A model generated the notes under the pieces. That model ran no database searches. It was not told where the DNA came from and saw only the letters and a program-made list of their open reading frames with translations. A program made the position numbers and the translations under genes. A stretch of 64,000 nucleotides of DNA from an uncultured Gammaproteobacteria bacterium. Its GTDB lineage: Bacteria > Patescibacteriota > Patescibacteriia > UBA9934. Shown here piece after piece: positions 10,577 to 48,244 of the stretch (the first letter of the stretch is position 1; each line of letters opens with the position of its first letter). The DNA lies in the NCBI GenBank assembly GCA_964355955.1, contig CAYHFQ010000001.1:103419-167418 (forward strand). The letters are read 5' to 3'.

Positions 10577-11146
10577 ATGAAGAAATTATTGAGCTTAGGA
10601 GGTGTGGTGGCTGTTGGGTTCCTAATGTTGGGAGTTGGTTGTAAGCCAATTTCGCAGGTAGCCACGATTGATGACGTACCGAATTCGGGGGTTAGTGTTG
10701 ATAAGCCAGCCGAAGTAGTGAGCGGCAGCTGGTATTTGACCTTTAACCTACCGAAGGATTGGGTGATGGTGCCGCAGTATGACGAAGGGGTACAGAAGGA
10801 TGTGACGAGCGTGCCAGTGACCAGTGATATGTCGGACGTGATTGTACAGAGTACGAACAAGATTATTGCTTTGACCGGTTCATCAGAATTGGAGAAAGAT
10901 TCTTTTGTGACGGATGATTACAGCTATATCCGCGCTTTCCGTTTGGATAAACATTCGGTGATTCCAGCAGAAGCGACAGATTTGGGTAATAATTTCTTCA
11001 AATTAGAAAAAGGTGTGAATGCGACTTATTACTTGAAGGGCAAGGGGAGTAATTATAAGTTTGTAGTGTATTACGATGGTGTTAATTTGAGTGAGGCGGA
11101 GAAGGTGATTGTGTCTGCTAAAGAGGTCACAGCGTTGGCGCAGTAG
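10577..11146 (+). CDS. Lipoprotein, function unknown
   Basis: Signal peptide with lipobox LGVGC. No recognisable domain. Confidence 0.6.
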   Translation: MKKLLSLGGVVAVGFLMLGVGCKPISQVATIDDVPNSGVSVDKPAEVVSGSWYLTFNLPKDWVMVPQYDEGVQKDVTSVPVTSDMSDVIVQSTNKIIALTGSSELEKDSFVTDDYSYIRAFRLDKHSVIPAEATDLGNNFFKLEKGVNATYYLKGKGSNYKFVVYYDGVNLSEAEKVIVSAKEVTALAQ

Positions 11147-36914: not shown

Positions 36915-37481
36915 TTATTCAGTTAGTTTAAGGAATTCTTGGAGGATAATTGGGGCTTTAATGAAACCGTCATCGGCAGTAATATGACCGGCATTGGGGA
37001 GAATAAGGATGTTGGCGGAGAGAGCACTAAATTTTTCTTTGTTTTCTGCTAGTGCGTCGAATGGGTCATTGTCTGATAAAATAGCCGTTGATTTTTTTAG
37101 GACAGATTTTACTTTAGGTAGGTTGATTGGTGTAGTAATCCAAGGATTAGCAGTGGTGATAGTCTCGGCATCCTCAAGATTTTCTAAATTAAACCAACCG
37201 GCAACGAATAAGGCCCCGCCCACCGGAACATTGATTGTTTCTAGATAACGGAGAATGGTTTGGCAGCCTATACTGTGACCTATAAAATAAGTTTGGTTGT
37301 CTGGTGTGCCAACTGAACTGGCTAGATGCTGTACCCAGTTATTGATAGTTGGTGTTTCGGTATCGGGCATGGTTAGTAGATAGACTTGATAACCTCGTTG
37401 TTCGAGTTCAGTTTTGAGCCAGGGTCGCCAGTCGTCGTTCGGTCCTCCGCTCCAACGATGAATAATGAATACACGAGTCAT
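36915..37481 (-). CDS. Serine hydrolase family protein (YdeN/RBBP9-like alpha/beta hydrolase)
   Basis: MTRVFIIHRWSGGPNDDWRPWLK...YFIGHSIGCQTIL, with a nucleophile elbow GHSIG. Confidence 0.7.
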   Translation of the reverse strand: MTRVFIIHRWSGGPNDDWRPWLKTELEQRGYQVYLLTMPDTETPTINNWVQHLASSVGTPDNQTYFIGHSIGCQTILRYLETINVPVGGALFVAGWFNLENLEDAETITTANPWITTPINLPKVKSVLKKSTAILSDNDPFDALAENKEKFSALSANILILPNAGHITADDGFIKAPIILQEFLKLTE

Positions 37482-37504
37482 ATTAATTAATATTATACAT
37501 ATCT

Positions 37505-37855
37505 CTAAAAAATAATCGGTTTTCGCTCGATGCCGATGGTTTCGATAGTTCTTAGTGAAGATTTATTATCTGTTGTGTAATAAACTGTTATGAGGCGGCC
37601 CCAAACATAAAATGTTAGTTCGTGCCATTGCTTGTTTTCTTTTCGACCTAAAACTAATTTATCGCTTAAATGTTTTTCAATTTCTAAAAAAATCTGCTCG
37701 CTAAGTTTTTTGGCTGATTGACGATAGTTTTCGATGATTGTTTCCTCAGCCGCCAACCCGCTGTCTCGATAGAGTTCAAAAAAGGCTTCTTCGTAGGCAC
37801 GAATGAAGCCGGTAATTGCGGAAACTGCGGATTCGCTATAAGCAATTTTAAGCAT
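37505..37855 (-). CDS. ParE/RelE-like type II toxin (putative)
   Basis: 116 aa. C-terminal YVWGRLITVYYTTDNKSSLRTIETIG resembles the ParE/RelE beta-sheet core. Its start overlaps the stop of a small upstream ORF (ATGCTTAA overlap). Confidence 0.45.
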   Translation of the reverse strand: MLKIAYSESAVSAITGFIRAYEEAFFELYRDSGLAAEETIIENYRQSAKKLSEQIFLEIEKHLSDKLVLGRKENKQWHELTFYVWGRLITVYYTTDNKSSLRTIETIGIERKPIIF

Positions 37856-38000
37856 ACAACCGCGCTTTAGTTGTTTGCTTTTTTTGGGTTGAGTAAGCTT
37901 TTTTTAGCTTTTGAGCTAAGCGGATGGCAGATTCGTCAATATAGTCAGAGATTATCTGACGAGCTTCGGTTGGGCTATATTGTTTATTTTTGGAGGTCAT
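37848..38000 (-). CDS. Putative antitoxin (50 aa) of the ParE/RelE-like pair
   Basis: Manual translation MTSKNKQYSPTEARQIISDYIDESAIRLAQKLKKAYSTQKKQTTKARLYA. Its stop overlaps the toxin start by 8 nt. Not in the ORF track because it is under 60 aa. Confidence 0.4.
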   Translation of the reverse strand: MTSKNKQYSPTEARQIISDYIDESAIRLAQKLKKAYSTQKKQTTKARLYA

Positions 38001-38047
38001 ACTTTGTTTGAAGAATAGTCGTTTATAGCTGAATCGTCAAAGTTAAT

Positions 38048-38818
38048 TTAAAATTGATCTATCCATTGTTTAGTAGCCTTGAACAGTTCGAGTCGAACTT
38101 TTGAAGAGTCAGCGAAATGGTGAGTAGCACCTTTAATGATAGTGAGTTTTTTAGGAGAGTTGGCGGTCGCGAAGTAGGTTTTGGCGCCTTTGACGAGAAT
38201 ACCTTTGCCGGCGGCAATAATACTAAGAGGTTTCTTAAAATTAGTGGCTAGTTTATCCCAAGGCAGATTGTCGACTTCCTCGGCCATGACTTTATTGATA
38301 ATGACATTTGGCCCCCAATGCATGAGATAGCCGTTTAATTCTTTAATAAATTTACCACCAGGATAGCCGTATTTTTCTTTGGCGAAAGAGATGTCATAAG
38401 AACCATCCCAAAGAATAGCAGTGTCAAAATTTTGTTTAGGAGAAGTCAGAATAGTCGGAGCACCGAAACTGTGCCCAGCGACATAGATTTTTTTGACTTT
38501 GTGTTGGCGAAAATAATTAACGACAGTGTCGAGATCCGCAGCATGGCTGGTGAGTGTGCTGTCGATTAATTGGCGAGCGTCAGCTTGATAGCTGTAGAGA
38601 TTAAAACGATAGACGGCGTAGCCTTGCTTCTCAAACCAGTTAGCGGCTTCGAGATAAAGACTTTCTTCGATGTTGCAGGGCAAGCCGTGAATGATGATCA
38701 GAAGAGGCTGGGTAAGGGAGCCGCTAAAACGGCCGTAAACAACATGCTTGGCGTCGACCTGAATGTTGAGATCTTTATTCATATTGTTTAAGAGTAGCAG
38801 ATTTGACTGAGAGCTCAA
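38048..38818 (-). CDS. Alpha/beta hydrolase (dienelactone-hydrolase-like)
   Basis: Nucleophile elbow YVAGHSFGA. About 250 aa alpha/beta fold pattern. Confidence 0.65.
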   Translation of the reverse strand: MSSQSNLLLLNNMNKDLNIQVDAKHVVYGRFSGSLTQPLLIIIHGLPCNIEESLYLEAANWFEKQGYAVYRFNLYSYQADARQLIDSTLTSHAADLDTVVNYFRQHKVKKIYVAGHSFGAPTILTSPKQNFDTAILWDGSYDISFAKEKYGYPGGKFIKELNGYLMHWGPNVIINKVMAEEVDNLPWDKLATNFKKPLSIIAAGKGILVKGAKTYFATANSPKKLTIIKGATHHFADSSKVRLELFKATKQWIDQF

Positions 38819-39307: not shown

Positions 39308-40264
39308 TTAAGCGTTAGGACAGAGAATAGTGAGAAGTAAGGCCATGCGGATGTAGAGGCCGTTGCGGGTTTGTTCGGGGAAGTAGCGGGCGCGGGGGTC
39401 GGCGTCGACCTCAGGAGCGATTTCGCCAACACGGGGGAGAGGATGGAGGATGATGGCGCTTAGTTTCATGGTGGCGACGTTCCTGGCATTGAGGGCAAAA
39501 CGGGCTTGGACGGCATTGAAAGCAGAGTCGCCTTGAGTGGCGTCGGTGAAACGTTCACGTTGGACACGAGTTTGGTAGAAGACGTCGGCGATGAGGAGAG
39601 TTTGAGTGAGATCTTCGGTAATGGTGTAGGGGATGTTGGCGGCTGTGAGTTCATCTAGAATGTCGGCCTGCATGGCGAGTTCTGGTGGTGAGCAGAAGAT
39701 GAAGTTCCAGTGTTCCTGACTGTCGGTTAAGTATTTGATGATGAGGCGACAGAGGGAACGGACGGTGCGGCCGTGTTTGAGGTCGCCGCAGAGAGCGATA
39801 GTGAGGTTGGGGTTGGCCGGAAAAGAACAGCAGATGGTGTAGAGATCAAGGAGGGCTTGGGTGGGGTGTTCGCCGTCACCGTCACCGGCGTTGATGATGG
39901 GAATATTAGCGACACGGGCTGCGGCTGCAGCAGCACCACGTTCCTTGTGACGGATGACGAGGGCGTCGATTTCGTAAGATTGGAGAACTTGGATGGTGTC
40001 TTCGAGCGTTTCACCTTTGGCGGCGGAGGAGAAGATGCCAGCGGCTTCCGTGAATTCGGTGCGGCCACCTAAATAGCGAACGGCGAGGCCAAAACTGGTG
40101 CGAGTACGAGTGCTTGGTTCGTAGAAGAGGAGGTAGACCAATTTACCGTGGAGGTAATTGAGGACGCCATGATCGCGGCGTTCTTGTTTGAGGCGGTCGG
40201 CGGTGGCGAAGAGGCTTTGAATGGTGGTGCGGTCAAATTGGGAGGCGGAGAGAATATGTTGCAT
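39308..40264 (-). CDS. pyrB: Aspartate carbamoyltransferase catalytic subunit
   Basis: STRTR motif (YEPSTRTRTSFGLA) and HPLP motif (ILHPLPRVGEI), which is diagnostic of ATCase rather than OTCase (HCLP). Confidence 0.85.
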   Translation of the reverse strand: MQHILSASQFDRTTIQSLFATADRLKQERRDHGVLNYLHGKLVYLLFYEPSTRTRTSFGLAVRYLGGRTEFTEAAGIFSSAAKGETLEDTIQVLQSYEIDALVIRHKERGAAAAAARVANIPIINAGDGDGEHPTQALLDLYTICCSFPANPNLTIALCGDLKHGRTVRSLCRLIIKYLTDSQEHWNFIFCSPPELAMQADILDELTAANIPYTITEDLTQTLLIADVFYQTRVQRERFTDATQGDSAFNAVQARFALNARNVATMKLSAIILHPLPRVGEIAPEVDADPRARYFPEQTRNGLYIRMALLLTILCPNA

Positions 40265-41045: not shown

Positions 41046-41924
41046 ATGCCTAATAATAAACCAGGTGAACAGGCAGGCCAGGGGGAGGTGCAAAAGGTTG
41101 AGGTGGTTGATAATAGAGTCGAAAAGGCTGCGTTAGCGCAAGTGGCGGAGCAGGAACAAGAGGTTAGAGTTGAGACTTTGGCGCAGGCTTTGGAACGAGG
41201 TAGGGGATACATGGAGGACATGGTGGCCGAAAGAAATGAGTTTAAAAGGCCGTATCGTGAAAGTTTACAGGAACGGGCGGAGAAGTTGGGAGAAGTTGAG
41301 ACTTTGCGGGAGTTGCAGAGGCAGGTGGAGGATTTGCGCGCTTTGTTATTGGCACGAACTGGGCCTAATCCGATGCCAGAGCAGATTGCCTGGGCACAGG
41401 GCGAGGCGCGTGAAGGACTTTTAAGGTTGGCGTATGGCGCGCGAGCTTTTACAAGACATCACCGCGTACCGCCGTTCAGAGTTGGTGGGGCGATGTTGGC
41501 TTTGCGACGAGTAAGTGAGGAAGATAGTAATCCATATGCTATAGCTTTTGCTGCTAATACAAAAGTGGATGATAATCATGACGCGACTCCAGCGGGTGAG
41601 AAGTGGTGCGCCGAGCAGTATTTAATGGATTTAGTTGCGGAGCCAACCAATCCTGGTGAAACTGGTATTTATAAGATTCTTTCTTTTGGAGTAGTGGCTG
41701 AACCGAGAAGCGATGACAAGAGTGGTAAGTTGCATGAGACATTAACTCCTTGTGCTATTTGTCGAGATAGAATGGTGTATGACCCAAAGCTAACTGGGCC
41801 AGCGGGAATCGTTTCACTGGAGACGGAGATTGTGACGCAGAGCGTGAAGGATCCGGCTGCGAAGAGAATTGACCCGGTGGCGCATTTGCATGGGATGCAT
41901 GGGGAGAGTATTGAGGTGGATTAG
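41046..41924 (+). CDS. Cytidine-deaminase-fold protein with ~120 aa coiled-coil N-terminal extension
   Basis: C-terminal part matches tetrameric CDA: FRVGGAMLA (compare FQVGAALL), zinc ligand motifs CAE (WCAEQYLMD) and PCxxC (TPCAICRD). The N-terminal 120 aa are Glu/Arg/Ala-rich helical with no CDA counterpart. Confidence 0.65.
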   Translation: MPNNKPGEQAGQGEVQKVEVVDNRVEKAALAQVAEQEQEVRVETLAQALERGRGYMEDMVAERNEFKRPYRESLQERAEKLGEVETLRELQRQVEDLRALLLARTGPNPMPEQIAWAQGEAREGLLRLAYGARAFTRHHRVPPFRVGGAMLALRRVSEEDSNPYAIAFAANTKVDDNHDATPAGEKWCAEQYLMDLVAEPTNPGETGIYKILSFGVVAEPRSDDKSGKLHETLTPCAICRDRMVYDPKLTGPAGIVSLETEIVTQSVKDPAAKRIDPVAHLHGMHGESIEVD

Positions 41925-41953
41925 TGGGTTTTTCACAAAAGTCTATTTTATTT

Positions 41954-43210
41954 ATGAAATCAGTTACTATATGTCCGATGCCACAGTCGCATAGTCGGCT
42001 ACATGAGGCCCATCGTTTTTGGCATGAGGCGGAAAGGGCATATCAAGATCCAATCGAATTCACAGCAAAGCTGAACGCATTGTTACAAGCGTTGCGGAAC
42101 GTGACATTTGTCATGCAAAAAGAACTTTCGAAAGACGAAAATTTCGATCAGTGGTATAGGGAAAAACAGGTTAAGATGAGGACTCTAGACTACATGAAAT
42201 GGGCTGTAGATGCCCGTAATTATATCGTAAAACAGGGTGACTTGGAGAAAAGGAGTTTTGCTATGGTGTCTTTGCTCACGTACGCAGATAACCTTGTCGT
42301 CAAAGAAGAGGTTTCGCCTTTTTTAGGATTACCGACATTGTCCGCAATATACGCAAAGCGTATTCAGAATCAAGATCCACGCTGGGATGTTGTGCTGGAA
42401 GTTGAACGAAGCTGGATGATTACAGCCTTTCCTGAAAGAGAAGTTTTGCTAGTACTACAGGACGTATTTCAAGTCCTTCATGAGATGCTTTCCGAATGGC
42501 ACACACGACACGAAGTCGTTATTAATACTTGTTCTGTTTCTAATACCGTCGATTCTCAGGAAAAATGTACTATGGGGTCGGATGAGTATCGTACCATTCG
42601 CTCCTCTTTAAATGAGGGTGGAATACTGACGGTTCAATCTCATATCATTAAGATTGATGACAAAATTAGGAAAATTGCTCATGAGAGATATCAGATCAAA
42701 AATAACTTGCTTGAAAATGGTGAAGTATCGCCTGAGTGGGAGGATGAACCATGGATAAGCGTTAATCACTTCATGCAATTAGCAAAGAAGATTCTTCAAA
42801 AAGATAAGTACCATCATCCGCACTTTTTCCTCTTTAGTTGTGGTATTTTAAGGGAAATTATTCCTGTTACTTATCACAACCGTCCTGAGAAATATTTAGT
42901 TATTAGGCATATGGCTAAGTATGTGAAGGAAAAAAATATTGATGGGATTATTTTCATTACTGAAAGTTGGACATCAGTGTCTGAACCAGATAAGTATGGA
43001 AATATTACCCCGCCGTCGGATGCAAAGGAAAAAGAAGAACTCCTCACGGTTTATATTGCGACTGCAGATGGACGAGCACGATCATATAGTATTACTTTTG
43101 CAAGAAACTGGACTGGCAAGATTCGATTTGGTGAAGTGACGTGTTCCGATATTCCCCAAAATTCTTTTATGGCACTTTTTTTTAAGGCCTGGGAAGTTAA
43201 ATCCTCTTAA
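41954..43210 (+). CDS. Hypothetical protein (~420 aa), operonic with the deaminase-fold gene
   Basis: Long ORF, lower GC (~42-45%). The track start at GTG 41924 directly abuts the upstream stop. ATG 41954 gives MKSVTICPMPQ. No domain recognised. Confidence 0.55.
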   Translation: MKSVTICPMPQSHSRLHEAHRFWHEAERAYQDPIEFTAKLNALLQALRNVTFVMQKELSKDENFDQWYREKQVKMRTLDYMKWAVDARNYIVKQGDLEKRSFAMVSLLTYADNLVVKEEVSPFLGLPTLSAIYAKRIQNQDPRWDVVLEVERSWMITAFPEREVLLVLQDVFQVLHEMLSEWHTRHEVVINTCSVSNTVDSQEKCTMGSDEYRTIRSSLNEGGILTVQSHIIKIDDKIRKIAHERYQIKNNLLENGEVSPEWEDEPWISVNHFMQLAKKILQKDKYHHPHFFLFSCGILREIIPVTYHNRPEKYLVIRHMAKYVKEKNIDGIIFITESWTSVSEPDKYGNITPPSDAKEKEELLTVYIATADGRARSYSITFARNWTGKIRFGEVTCSDIPQNSFMALFFKAWEVKSS

Positions 43211-43595
43211 CTTTAATAGTTATGAAGCAATATAGCCTAGTAAAGGTTTGTTCTATTATGTGAGGTGCCTAACCTGCACCTGAAATGCATGGGTTCACAT
43301 ATACGAAATAATCCTGGTGGAGGAAAGGGGATTGCTCGCACTTTTCGGATCGTCGTCGCTTATCGAGGGCTAGGTATGAAAACTAAGCTTGAAAACGAGA
43401 TTAAGTATTTCAGTCTTTTAACGAATAGCCCTCGTTGGACCCCATGGTACTGCAGGATGCCGATGAGGTAGTGTGAACATTCGAGCGTACGTCAAATATT
43501 TATCACAGCAGGGGAGCATTTTGGATAAGCGTGAGCTGCTTGGTAATTTGCTCAGCAGGCTGATATACTTCAATAAATAGATTAATTTCTCCAAA

Positions 43596-44243
43596 ATGAG
43601 TTTAATTATGCAGAATCTGCAAAAAATTAAAGGATATCTGATAAAGTCGGTAATCCTTGCTGTTATAATCATTTATGTCTTTCATTACTTTACAACTACA
43701 GTAGACGAAACTGGATTTTTGGGCATGAATACAAATGGAAGACAAATTTTTATTCAGTCGATGGATCACTACATGAAAACAATGGATAGTAGCGTGACGG
43801 TGAGTTCCGAATGGGATAACTATTCTCTTCTGGAAAGGCTGTGGCAAGAACCAATGCGAACGACTTTGAAAATGGATAAAGCCATGAGTGAAGATGATTA
43901 TTTACAGTTTCAGATTGCAGGAGGGTTTTCGGAAACTACTCGCTCTAAAGATGTAGAGACTAGTCTTGAAACACCGTATGTAGATTTCGTGCGTAATTTA
44001 TCTGAAATCAGCTTGTCCGAAGACTATTCGGTGTCCTCCGAGGAGCTGGAAACGATCGCTAATGAAGCTGGCGTAGTGACATACCGTGACTTATTGCGTG
44101 GGTTCGGATTTACTTCATATGAGTATTATGTGAATGGCGAGTTGATAAGCTCAATAATTTTAAATCCGCAGATTACGAATCACGTTCAAGGAAATTTTAT
44201 ATCGAAAGTTGGTAGTACCGAGAATCAGTCAGTAGCAGAGTAA
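43596..44243 (+). CDS. Hypothetical membrane-anchored protein (215 aa), AT-rich
   Basis: N-terminal TM helix YLIKSVILAVIIIYVFHYF. Remainder soluble. About 38% GC. Confidence 0.5.
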   Translation: MSLIMQNLQKIKGYLIKSVILAVIIIYVFHYFTTTVDETGFLGMNTNGRQIFIQSMDHYMKTMDSSVTVSSEWDNYSLLERLWQEPMRTTLKMDKAMSEDDYLQFQIAGGFSETTRSKDVETSLETPYVDFVRNLSEISLSEDYSVSSEELETIANEAGVVTYRDLLRGFGFTSYEYYVNGELISSIILNPQITNHVQGNFISKVGSTENQSVAE

Positions 44244-44359
44244 CCCTAACAAAGAATTATTTTATTTGAGACAAGGTCCTACGAATCCCCACGCAAGCTA
44301 AATTGTTGGCTTGCCCTCCCTCCGCAATCAAAAATATCCAGACAAGGTCTGGATATTTT

Positions 44360-44448
44360 TGGCGGAAGGGGAGAGATTCGAACTCTCGAAGCCTTGCGGC
44401 TTACGCGATTTCGAGTCGCGCGCACTAGACCAGCTATGCGACCCTTCC
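44360..44448 (-). tRNA. tRNA-Ser (CGA)
   Basis: Minus-strand GGAAGGGTCGCATAGCTGGTCTAGTGCGCGCGACTCGAAATCGCG...GGCTTCGAGAGTTCGAATCTCTCCCCTTCCGCCA: long variable arm (type II), anticodon loop CTCGAAA, encoded CCA. Confidence 0.85.
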
Positions 44449-47569: not shown

Positions 47570-48244
47570 TTACTTAGGCTCTTCGCCGATTAACTCGAGT
47601 CCTGTGAGGCGGGTGATGTTTTTGACTGTTAATCGGGCTTCTTCAATTGAACTATCCCGTAACAATAAGACTTTTTTCGCTCCGTTTATGACGTAGGTAC
47701 AGTAATGTTTTTCGTGTCCCGCTGACCGGTATCTGGCAGAAAATTCCACTCCCATCATTAAGTTATTAAAGTCGCTGACTTTGTGATGGCGTGTAAAGGA
47801 CCAAGGTTTACCTTGCATGATCAGAAAAGTTTTGTCTACGTTGAAGACTACAATGCGGAGTTTCAGTATGCAAAAATAAGTGACTAGGAAAGAGCAGAGG
47901 CTCATGATGAGTGCCCAGATCAGAATTTTAAGGGAGTTTTCTTGTAGGGCGAATAACGGAATATACGTACCGAGTAATAAAAAACCCGTGCCAAAAGCCA
48001 CAAAAAGAAAAGAAGTCTTTTTTCCGTCACAGTAGTAATAAGTAGCAGAATCTTCGATGCTTCGGCCTCGTACAGCAGCTATGGTTAAGAAGACGGCTAT
48101 TGCCAGAAAAACCAGGGCTAACAAATTTCCTCCAGGAAGAGCATAATCAGCTGAAATATTAATATTTCGCAAAAAAGTGATTATTGCTGCGAGTGCGAAG
48201 GTGATGGGTGCAGCGTAGTCACCCGGAGCATGAATTTGTTTCAT
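47570..48244 (-). CDS. Membrane protein with C-terminal bacterial-PH-like domain (hypothetical)
   Basis: Four N-terminal TM helices, then a ~90 aa soluble domain. Confidence 0.5.
   Translation of the reverse strand: MKQIHAPGDYAAPITFALAAIITFLRNINISADYALPGGNLLALVFLAIAVFLTIAAVRGRSIEDSATYYYCDGKKTSFLFVAFGTGFLLLGTYIPLFALQENSLKILIWALIMSLCSFLVTYFCILKLRIVVFNVDKTFLIMQGKPWSFTRHHKVSDFNNLMMGVEFSARYRSAGHEKHYCTYVINGAKKVLLLRDSSIEEARLTVKNITRLTGLELIGEEPK

Follow-up and report, generated by a model that had tools for sequence, protein, structure and literature searches.

Cytidine deaminases of the homotetrameric type (CDA), such as Cdd of Bacillus subtilis (Protein Data Bank [PDB] entry 1JTK) and of Burkholderia (3DMO) and CDD1 of yeast (1R5T), all of family PF00383, have a small single-domain catalytic core in which the CAE...PCxxC motifs provide a three-cysteine zinc site and the catalytic Glu, together with a conserved Phe and Asn of the nucleoside pocket. 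In Cdd, Glu44 binds the ribose (3'-OH), while Arg56 adjoins and neutralizes the three-cysteine zinc site. Domains of the CDA superfamily to which an N-terminal region has been added are also found in deaminase-based anti-phage defense and in polymorphic-toxin deaminases. Genomic islets adjacent to tRNA genes are another class of known systems, marked by presence/absence polymorphism, deviant GC content and cargo that varies between lineages. A further point of reference is ea47, an early gene in the b region of phage lambda. Lambda ea47 is non-essential and its function is listed as unknown (PMC10695390, PMC3224144). All of these bear on a locus in the 64,000 nt stretch of DNA analyzed here (the window, in whose numbering all coordinates are given), in which a divergent deaminase gene, the open reading frame (ORF) ORF1, is followed on the same strand by an ea47 homologue (ORF2) and an orphan gene for a putative membrane protein (ORF3), and then by a tRNA-Ser gene (Table 1). 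The first-pass annotation of this locus had offered the deaminase and its downstream partner as a possible acquired defense or toxin module, adding that the former could equally be a divergent cdd. With a probability that we put at about 80%, two independent entities adjoin here, an inherited deaminase and an unrelated 2.4 kb insert, which are neighbors by chance and form no defense operon.

The proposed CDA core of ORF1 was confirmed by comparisons of its family, its profile and its modeled structure. The core is invisible to single-sequence hidden Markov model searches, since ORF1 alone matched no Pfam family at a limit as loose as E<=10, no deaminase model of NCBIfam and no PHROGs or PDB-sequence entry; its identity to Cdd is 13-19%, and it falls below detection by the Pfam model. 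A database search gave eight relatives, and the profile built from those eight enlarged the family to 28 members, 18 of which match PF00383 (best E=4e-7), so that the membership of ORF1 itself in PF00383 is transitive only, through its family. The family profile aligned tetrameric CDAs of the PDB end to end (3DMO, E=0.011) and runs across the whole domain of both the B. subtilis and the Burkholderia enzyme. The AlphaFold2 model computed on the 28-sequence alignment (predicted local distance difference test [pLDDT] 86.6; predicted template-modeling score [pTM] 0.81) had 19 matches at E<=1e-3 in a Foldseek search of the PDB, all of them homotetrameric CDAs at probability 1.00, among which were yeast CDD1 and the Bacillus, mouse, Burkholderia and EfCDA enzymes (target-normalized template-modeling score 0.68-0.77; about 0.7 for the three reference enzymes cited above). 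Matches to APOBEC, ADAR and CDADC1 in that search were not significant. C188-A189-E190 (41607-41615) and T232-L-T-P-C236-x-x-C239-R240, which includes PCAICR at 41748-41765, are invariant in 28/28 family sequences, which leaves zinc site and catalytic Glu both in place; as these are kept, ORF1 is probably catalytically active. The two pocket residues are also retained, with F144 of ORF1 on F24 and N171 on N42 of B. subtilis Cdd in the profile alignment. The B. subtilis sequence used agrees with the segments seen in the PDB profile alignment.

ORF1 is extended at its N-terminus relative to canonical Cdd. Residue 3 of the B. subtilis enzyme aligns to residue 122 of ORF1, which leaves approximately 121 extra residues, in agreement with the extension of about 120 residues without counterpart in Cdd that had been noticed at first pass. 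At its beginning, residues 1-43 are predicted to be disordered (pLDDT <50 at 1-23 and 25-37), and residues 1-44 are gapped and of variable length among homologues. The three helices that follow (45-70, 74-81 and 84-105) were modeled with pLDDT >90, conservation is family-wide from about residue 68, and L74, R77, A78, L87 and E89 are invariant among eight close homologues. This family-specific helical module would probably change oligomerization or regulation of the enzyme. Other features that set the family apart from Cdd are an insertion of 8-14 residues in the loop between the ANTK motif and CAE, present in the Uhrbacteria clade, and a C-terminal tail with a conserved LHxFHGE..E.D motif.

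The genomic context of ORF1 is that of a core gene. A protein identical to ORF1 is encoded on a contig of 1.09 Mb. Its orthologues in four related loci, L006 (87% identity), L004 and L005 (68%; L005 is Candidatus Uhrbacteria, GCA_003518105) and L009 (60%), occupy the identical syntenic slot without ORF2 or ORF3, in the order GH6 or peptidase S51, ORF1, tRNA-Ser, Wzy_C and Polysacc_synt, with a two-component system and GH6 upstream. Among the more distant members each gene stands alone in a core context of the chromosome, next to SecG, GroES/EL, two-component systems, DUF378, PurP-like genes or SAICAR synthase. The family was seen here only in Uhrbacteria-type assemblies of the candidate phyla radiation and in unassigned metagenomic assemblies; one member carries the name Candidatus Uhrbacteria, and for a few the automatic annotation is 'cytidine deaminase'. 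Both the GC content (0.504) and the GC skew (0.354) of ORF1 match those of the flanks. We propose that ORF1 is a zinc-dependent deaminase of the homotetrameric CDA type whose gene has been inherited vertically and stands alone. Its role would most likely lie in pyrimidine salvage, where it would deaminate a cytosine nucleoside or nucleotide hydrolytically. The suggestion of a divergent cdd has held up, and it is the best-supported reading of ORF1. The gene for aspartate carbamoyltransferase, pyrB (39308-40264, minus strand; TIGR00670, 301.7 bits, above the cut-off), lies two genes from ORF1 in the window and directly adjacent to it in L009 (4827-5783), and is absent near the orthologue in the three other lineages; its proximity is a weak hint of a role in nucleotide metabolism.

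The DNA that follows ORF1 has a different history. DNA alignments and blastn comparisons with L004, L005, L006 and L009 show homology as far as the ORF1 stop (41907-41923) and again from 44326 (L004, L005) or 44305 (L009) onward, which fixes the boundaries of the insert within about 20 nt. Its GC content of 0.399 is below that of all 308 sliding 2.4 kb windows, against 0.53-0.55 in the flanks; its GC skew is damped to 0.129, against 0.34-0.37; and its GC at third codon positions (GC3) is 0.375-0.389, against 0.60-0.69 in flanking genes. Across 42.0-44.2 kb the GC content lies at 0.36-0.43, down from about 0.52, and the break in composition coincides with the ORF1 stop codon. An acquired island had been suspected from the low GC and the neighboring tRNA; that suspicion proved right for 41925-44325, which is absent in the relatives and is the lowest-GC segment of its size, and wrong for ORF1, which lies outside the island. 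The slot is empty in L004, L005 and L006. In the P0007 contig it is occupied by Ldh_2, NUDIX and DAO genes and in L009 by genes for a zinc-ribbon protein, a MerR/HTH_17 protein and a protein of 103 aa, neither set being related to the insert. The place between ORF1 and tRNA-Ser is a variable hot spot. On the other flank, a HigB-like toxin and HTH_3 antitoxin pair with a truncated GH6 fragment lies upstream of pyrB in L009 (4170-4763), and ORF1 has a hot spot of small mobile cassettes on either side.

The right-hand junction can be read from the relatives. In L005 the ORF1 stop is directly followed by a hairpin, AAAAATATCCAGA...TCTGGATATTTTT (10818-10850), and then by the 3' end of tRNA-Ser; the hairpin common to L005 and the window now stands after ORF3, and L006 has a different hairpin at the same place after the stop of its ORF1 orthologue. 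In the relatives the hairpin separates the convergent ORF1 and tRNA-Ser genes. It is likely to be a shared bidirectional terminator, and it was not listed by the consensus terminator scan. The same scan gave no site between ORF1 and ORF2, which lie on the same strand 29 nt apart. As the insert precedes the native terminator and no site was found between the two genes, ORF2 may be transcribed by read-through from ORF1, which would be an accident of insertion with no functional coupling. The two genes had been called operonic: their same-strand adjacency without a detected terminator stands, but that adjacency is specific to this strain. We propose that the insert is recently acquired DNA which entered a recombination-prone slot, between the ORF1 stop and the terminator with tRNA-Ser, and brought with it the Ea47-family gene and the orphan membrane-protein gene. 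We would describe it as a small accessory islet that carries an Ea47-family 'moron'.

Table 1. Coordinates of the features of the ORF1 locus and of the adjoining insert, in window numbering
Feature	Position	Strand	Description
ORF1	41046-41924	+	292 aa; divergent zinc deaminase of the homotetrameric CDA type; stand-alone, lineage-conserved core gene
ORF1 residues 1-44	41046-41177	+	Charged, poorly conserved N-terminal tail, predicted disordered
ORF1 residues 45-105	41178-41360	+	Helical extension of three helices, no counterpart in canonical Cdd
ORF1 residues 111-292	41376-41921	+	CDA-fold catalytic domain
Insert	41925-44325		Strain-specific, 2401 bp, from ORF1 stop codon to terminator hairpin and tRNA-Ser
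Direct repeat, left copy	41935-41953	+	ACAAAAGTCTATTTTATTT; imperfect 19 nt repeat at insert edge, family D1
ORF2	41954-43210	+	418 aa; phage lambda Ea47 family (PF26900)
Spacer	43211-43595		385 bp inside insert; no convincing gene or RNA
ORF3	43596-44243	+	215 aa orphan; one N-terminal transmembrane or signal-anchor segment, acidic remainder
Direct repeat, right copy	44249-44267	+	ACAAAGAATTATTTTATTT; 6 nt past ORF3 stop
Hairpin	44329-44361		Perfect 15+15 nt inverted repeat (I3) with A and T runs on its sides
tRNA-Ser(CGA)	44360-44448	-	ARAGORN; Rfam RF00005, 52.8 bits; position conserved in relatives

The larger gene of the insert, which had been described as having no recognizable domain, belongs to the Ea47 family: an identical protein carries the precomputed annotation PF26900, Phage_lambda_Ea47, a model that is not in the Pfam copy scanned here, in which ORF2 had no match. 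Three start codons come into question (GTG 41924, ATG 41954 and ATG 41978), of which the gene callers chose the first or the last; the best is ATG 41954, as first suggested, because the closest relative (P0010, 73% identical, at locus L010) begins with the same MKSV..CPMPQ. In a tblastn comparison with lambda ea47 the homology covers 79% of the query at 25% identity (E=4e-9), ORF2 matches phrog_19262 at 1.2e-18, the lambda protein is of similar length (410 aa), and both come from accessory or mobile DNA and share conserved family motifs such as QALRNVTF. An exhaustive profile search gave 2072 representative relatives, of which 555 reach E<=1e-30. Searches of solved structures by sequence profile gave no match to ORF2 and the Foldseek search of the PDB, made with a confident AlphaFold2 model (pLDDT 90.9), gave nothing significant; in BFVD the matches were partial only and to uncharacterized phage proteins. 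No Pfam similarity recurs across 80 family members, some of which carry a SEC-C motif and TPR repeats at the C-terminus or, at the N-terminus, DUF5677 or an HNH domain. Two weak candidates at E=0.003-0.03, PDC-M44A (PADLOC, E=0.003; matched by 1/80 family members) and the TumA antitoxin, were rejected as chance, and a match to Mvb12 as noise.

The distribution of the Ea47 family is that of mobile single genes. With the ORF2 profile, 22 loci were collected from GTDB genomes of Acidobacteriota, Patescibacteria, Nitrospirales, Planctomycetes, Actinomycetes (including a Nocardia plasmid), Chloroflexota and Firmicutes, all of which are recognized by lambda Ea47 (E 7e-6 to 4e-39; 21/22 at <=7e-13); the same profile found nothing in viral contigs. 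The neighbors in these 22 loci include four integrases, type I restriction-modification genes, Avs2, GajA, a transposase, a DRT reverse transcriptase, AriA-like ATPases and PLD nucleases. Neither a deaminase partner nor any conserved partner was found in 24 other family loci (the 22 genome loci, L010 and phage lambda). L010 has a phage-like context, with phrog_4182 and a ParB-like nuclease/methyltransferase, and what it has in common with the insert is confined to the ORF2 coding region (41952-43196, 77% nucleotide identity). In lambda itself ea47 follows ea59 (AAA ATPase) and ea31 (HNH endonuclease) in a same-strand series (L033, 1922-6209), an arrangement unlike that of ORF2: such neighbors were looked for beside ORF2 and in the 22 genome loci and none were found, and the comparison transfers no mechanism. 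The lambda trio and the family protein P0177, which has an N-terminal HNH motif, are hints of an occasional functional link of Ea47 domains with ATPase/HNH nuclease pairs. No function of Ea47 was found reported in the literature. The family behaves like single-gene accessory ('moron'-type) cargo of phages, plasmids and defense islands, and our best guess, suggested but not proven by its genomic contexts, is a role in phage-host conflict.

The rest of the insert is less informative. ORF3 was rightly described as an AT-rich gene for a protein with a single transmembrane segment: its GC content is 0.383, its hydropathy peaks at about residues 11-36, and past residue 35 it has 29 Asp+Glu against 12 Lys+Arg. 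Since an open frame as long as this one arose in only 2/2000 shuffles of the insert, ORF3 is probably a real gene. It had no family match and no relative in JGI metagenome contigs, and it is not homologous to the gene downstream of P0010. Within the spacer between ORF2 and ORF3 one weak promoter-like site was seen (43540-43569), and an Rfam scan found no RNA element anywhere in the insert. A plus-strand ORF in the spacer (43265-43471), called as a 60 aa gene in the public assembly L002 and without homology support, may be spurious or a gene remnant.

Several observations weigh against two chance neighbors, one an inherited Cdd-like enzyme and the other a mobile Ea47 gene. The GC3 of ORF1 (0.47) is lower than that of the flanking core genes (0.60-0.69), which leaves room for an older acquisition of ORF1 by the lineage. 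No integrase, excisionase or transposase ORF was found in or beside the insert and no insertion mechanism is evident. The link of the Ea47 family to defense islands rests on the 22 loci, without statistics, and is anecdotal, and the fold of ORF2 gives no functional clue. Finally, Glu44 of B. subtilis Cdd is replaced family-wide by an invariant Lys (Lys173 of ORF1, codon 41562-41564), and Arg56 by Gln (Gln191) in the profile alignment. Because of these two substitutions and of the helical extension, the substrate of ORF1 is doubtful and is maybe not cytidine; we consider the chances of cytidine or deoxycytidine to be evenly balanced, with another cytosine-containing compound a possible but less probable choice.

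The alternative that survives best takes these changes further, and supposes that ORF1 is no nucleoside deaminase but a CDA-fold enzyme that has turned to another substrate, such as nucleic acid, a modified cytosine compound or a cytosine nucleotide in phosphorylated form, with the helical module serving for substrate recognition or assembly. It would account for the loss of the residue that binds the ribose 3'-OH and of Arg56, for the loop insertion of the Uhrbacteria clade, for a helical extension that is both conserved and confidently predicted, and for the failure of the protein itself against the Pfam deaminase model; yet the significant structural neighbors are all free-nucleoside CDAs, with APOBEC, ADAR and CDADC1 below significance, Asn171, Phe144 and PCxxCR of Cdd are kept, and the contexts of the family include nucleotide-metabolism genes. 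We regard this retargeting as tentative.

Somewhat more doubtful is the proposal that the insert is what decay has left of a prophage or other larger integrative element, for which the tRNA-Ser region was the attachment site. The insert resembles tRNA-adjacent islets in its presence/absence polymorphism beside a tRNA gene, its deviant GC content and a cargo that differs between lineages; the tRNA-Ser 3' end faces the insert at a distance of 35 nt, the closest ORF2 relative lies among phage-like genes, and an imperfect direct repeat marks both edges of the insert. However, 41925-44325 holds only ORF2, ORF3 and short spurious ORFs, none with a recombinase domain, and unlike those islets the insert lies outside the tRNA gene, upstream of the shared terminator hairpin. 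Direct repeats matching the tRNA-Ser 3' end, suggested earlier as a sign of integration, are not there: the 24 nt of that end occur only once in the window with <=3 mismatches allowed, so no tRNA-derived att repeat is present. The 19 nt repeat is AT-rich and its copies are only 79% identical; it is possibly a junction remnant, which we say with low confidence, and could be due to chance.

Rather unlikely is a joint reading of the two genes, by which ORF1 and its family would represent a deaminase confined to the candidate phyla radiation with a non-cytidine substrate, which may be a phosphorylated cytosine nucleotide or a cytosine in nucleic acid recognized through Lys173 and the N-terminal helical module, while independently the Ea47 family would be a new single-gene factor in phage-host conflict. 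Last comes the proposal that ORF1, ORF2 and ORF3 are one acquired operon, a nucleotide-depletion anti-phage or toxin module made of a deaminase, an accessory partner and a membrane component, which is very improbable and was already largely refuted by synteny: the shared strand, the short gap without a detected terminator, the frequent nearness of ORF2 relatives to defense genes and, compared from general knowledge, the combination of a CDA-superfamily domain with an extra N-terminal region speak for it, but it fails because no conserved pairing was found, the ORF1 orthologues at 87%, 68% and 60% identity standing at the same locus without ORF2 and ORF3 and no Ea47-family locus having a deaminase or a conserved partner, while the break in composition falls precisely on the stop codon of ORF1, the gene that follows the closest ORF2 relative is not related to ORF3, PADLOC defense models matched ORF1 no better than noise (LmuB, E=0.4), and ORF1, unlike the deaminases of defense and toxin systems, is a core gene in conserved synteny, without the context of a variable island and without an immunity or partner gene, whose structural neighbors are nucleoside CDAs and not dCTP/dCMP deaminases or toxin clades.

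Other segments of the window also vary in composition or in content. From 28000 to 64000, for example, a very strong plus-strand GC skew (0.25-0.41 in 2 kb bins) is common to genes of both strands. At about 18-26 kb the skew is reversed (-0.06 to -0.18), with small plus-strand ORFs (127-195 aa) at 20.5-23.3 kb, and this stretch may be inverted, foreign or a landmark of replication. A second patch of low GC (0.41) and low skew (0.165) lies at 36915-38818, within a block reaching to 39227 that encodes a Ser_hydrolase, a 116 aa protein of unknown function, an alpha/beta hydrolase and a PadR regulator; as the whole block is absent from the orthologous L004, L005 and L006 loci, it is another strain-variable segment. 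A minus-strand gene of 224 aa at 47570-48244, with a GC content of 0.42, low skew and no family match, stands between Polysacc_synt and SpoIID, where L004 and L006 lack it; it is probably another small insertion. The segment 50600-55000 has a low GC content (0.405-0.424) yet, unlike the inserts, the full native skew (0.33-0.42), so that its low GC has a different cause, perhaps old or native AT-rich genes. In a genome with strong replication-strand GC skew, foreign DNA is betrayed by low GC together with damped skew.

A false lead has been removed, as the deaminase of this locus stands outside any defense or toxin operon. What it leaves is a Cdd-like family, divergent and extended, that escapes standard domain models. 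Bacteria of the candidate phyla radiation are generally thought to depend on nucleotide salvage, and the real substrate of ORF1 bears on the pyrimidine supply of such bacteria; we found nothing in the literature on their cytidine deaminases. The Ea47 family, on the other side of the junction, is large and patchy, spread over many phyla as a gene that moves singly, often near defense genes and integrases, and those contexts are a modest hint at the function of a lambda gene that has been of unknown function for 40 years. If a role in phage-host conflict is true, lambda ea47 would at last get a function.

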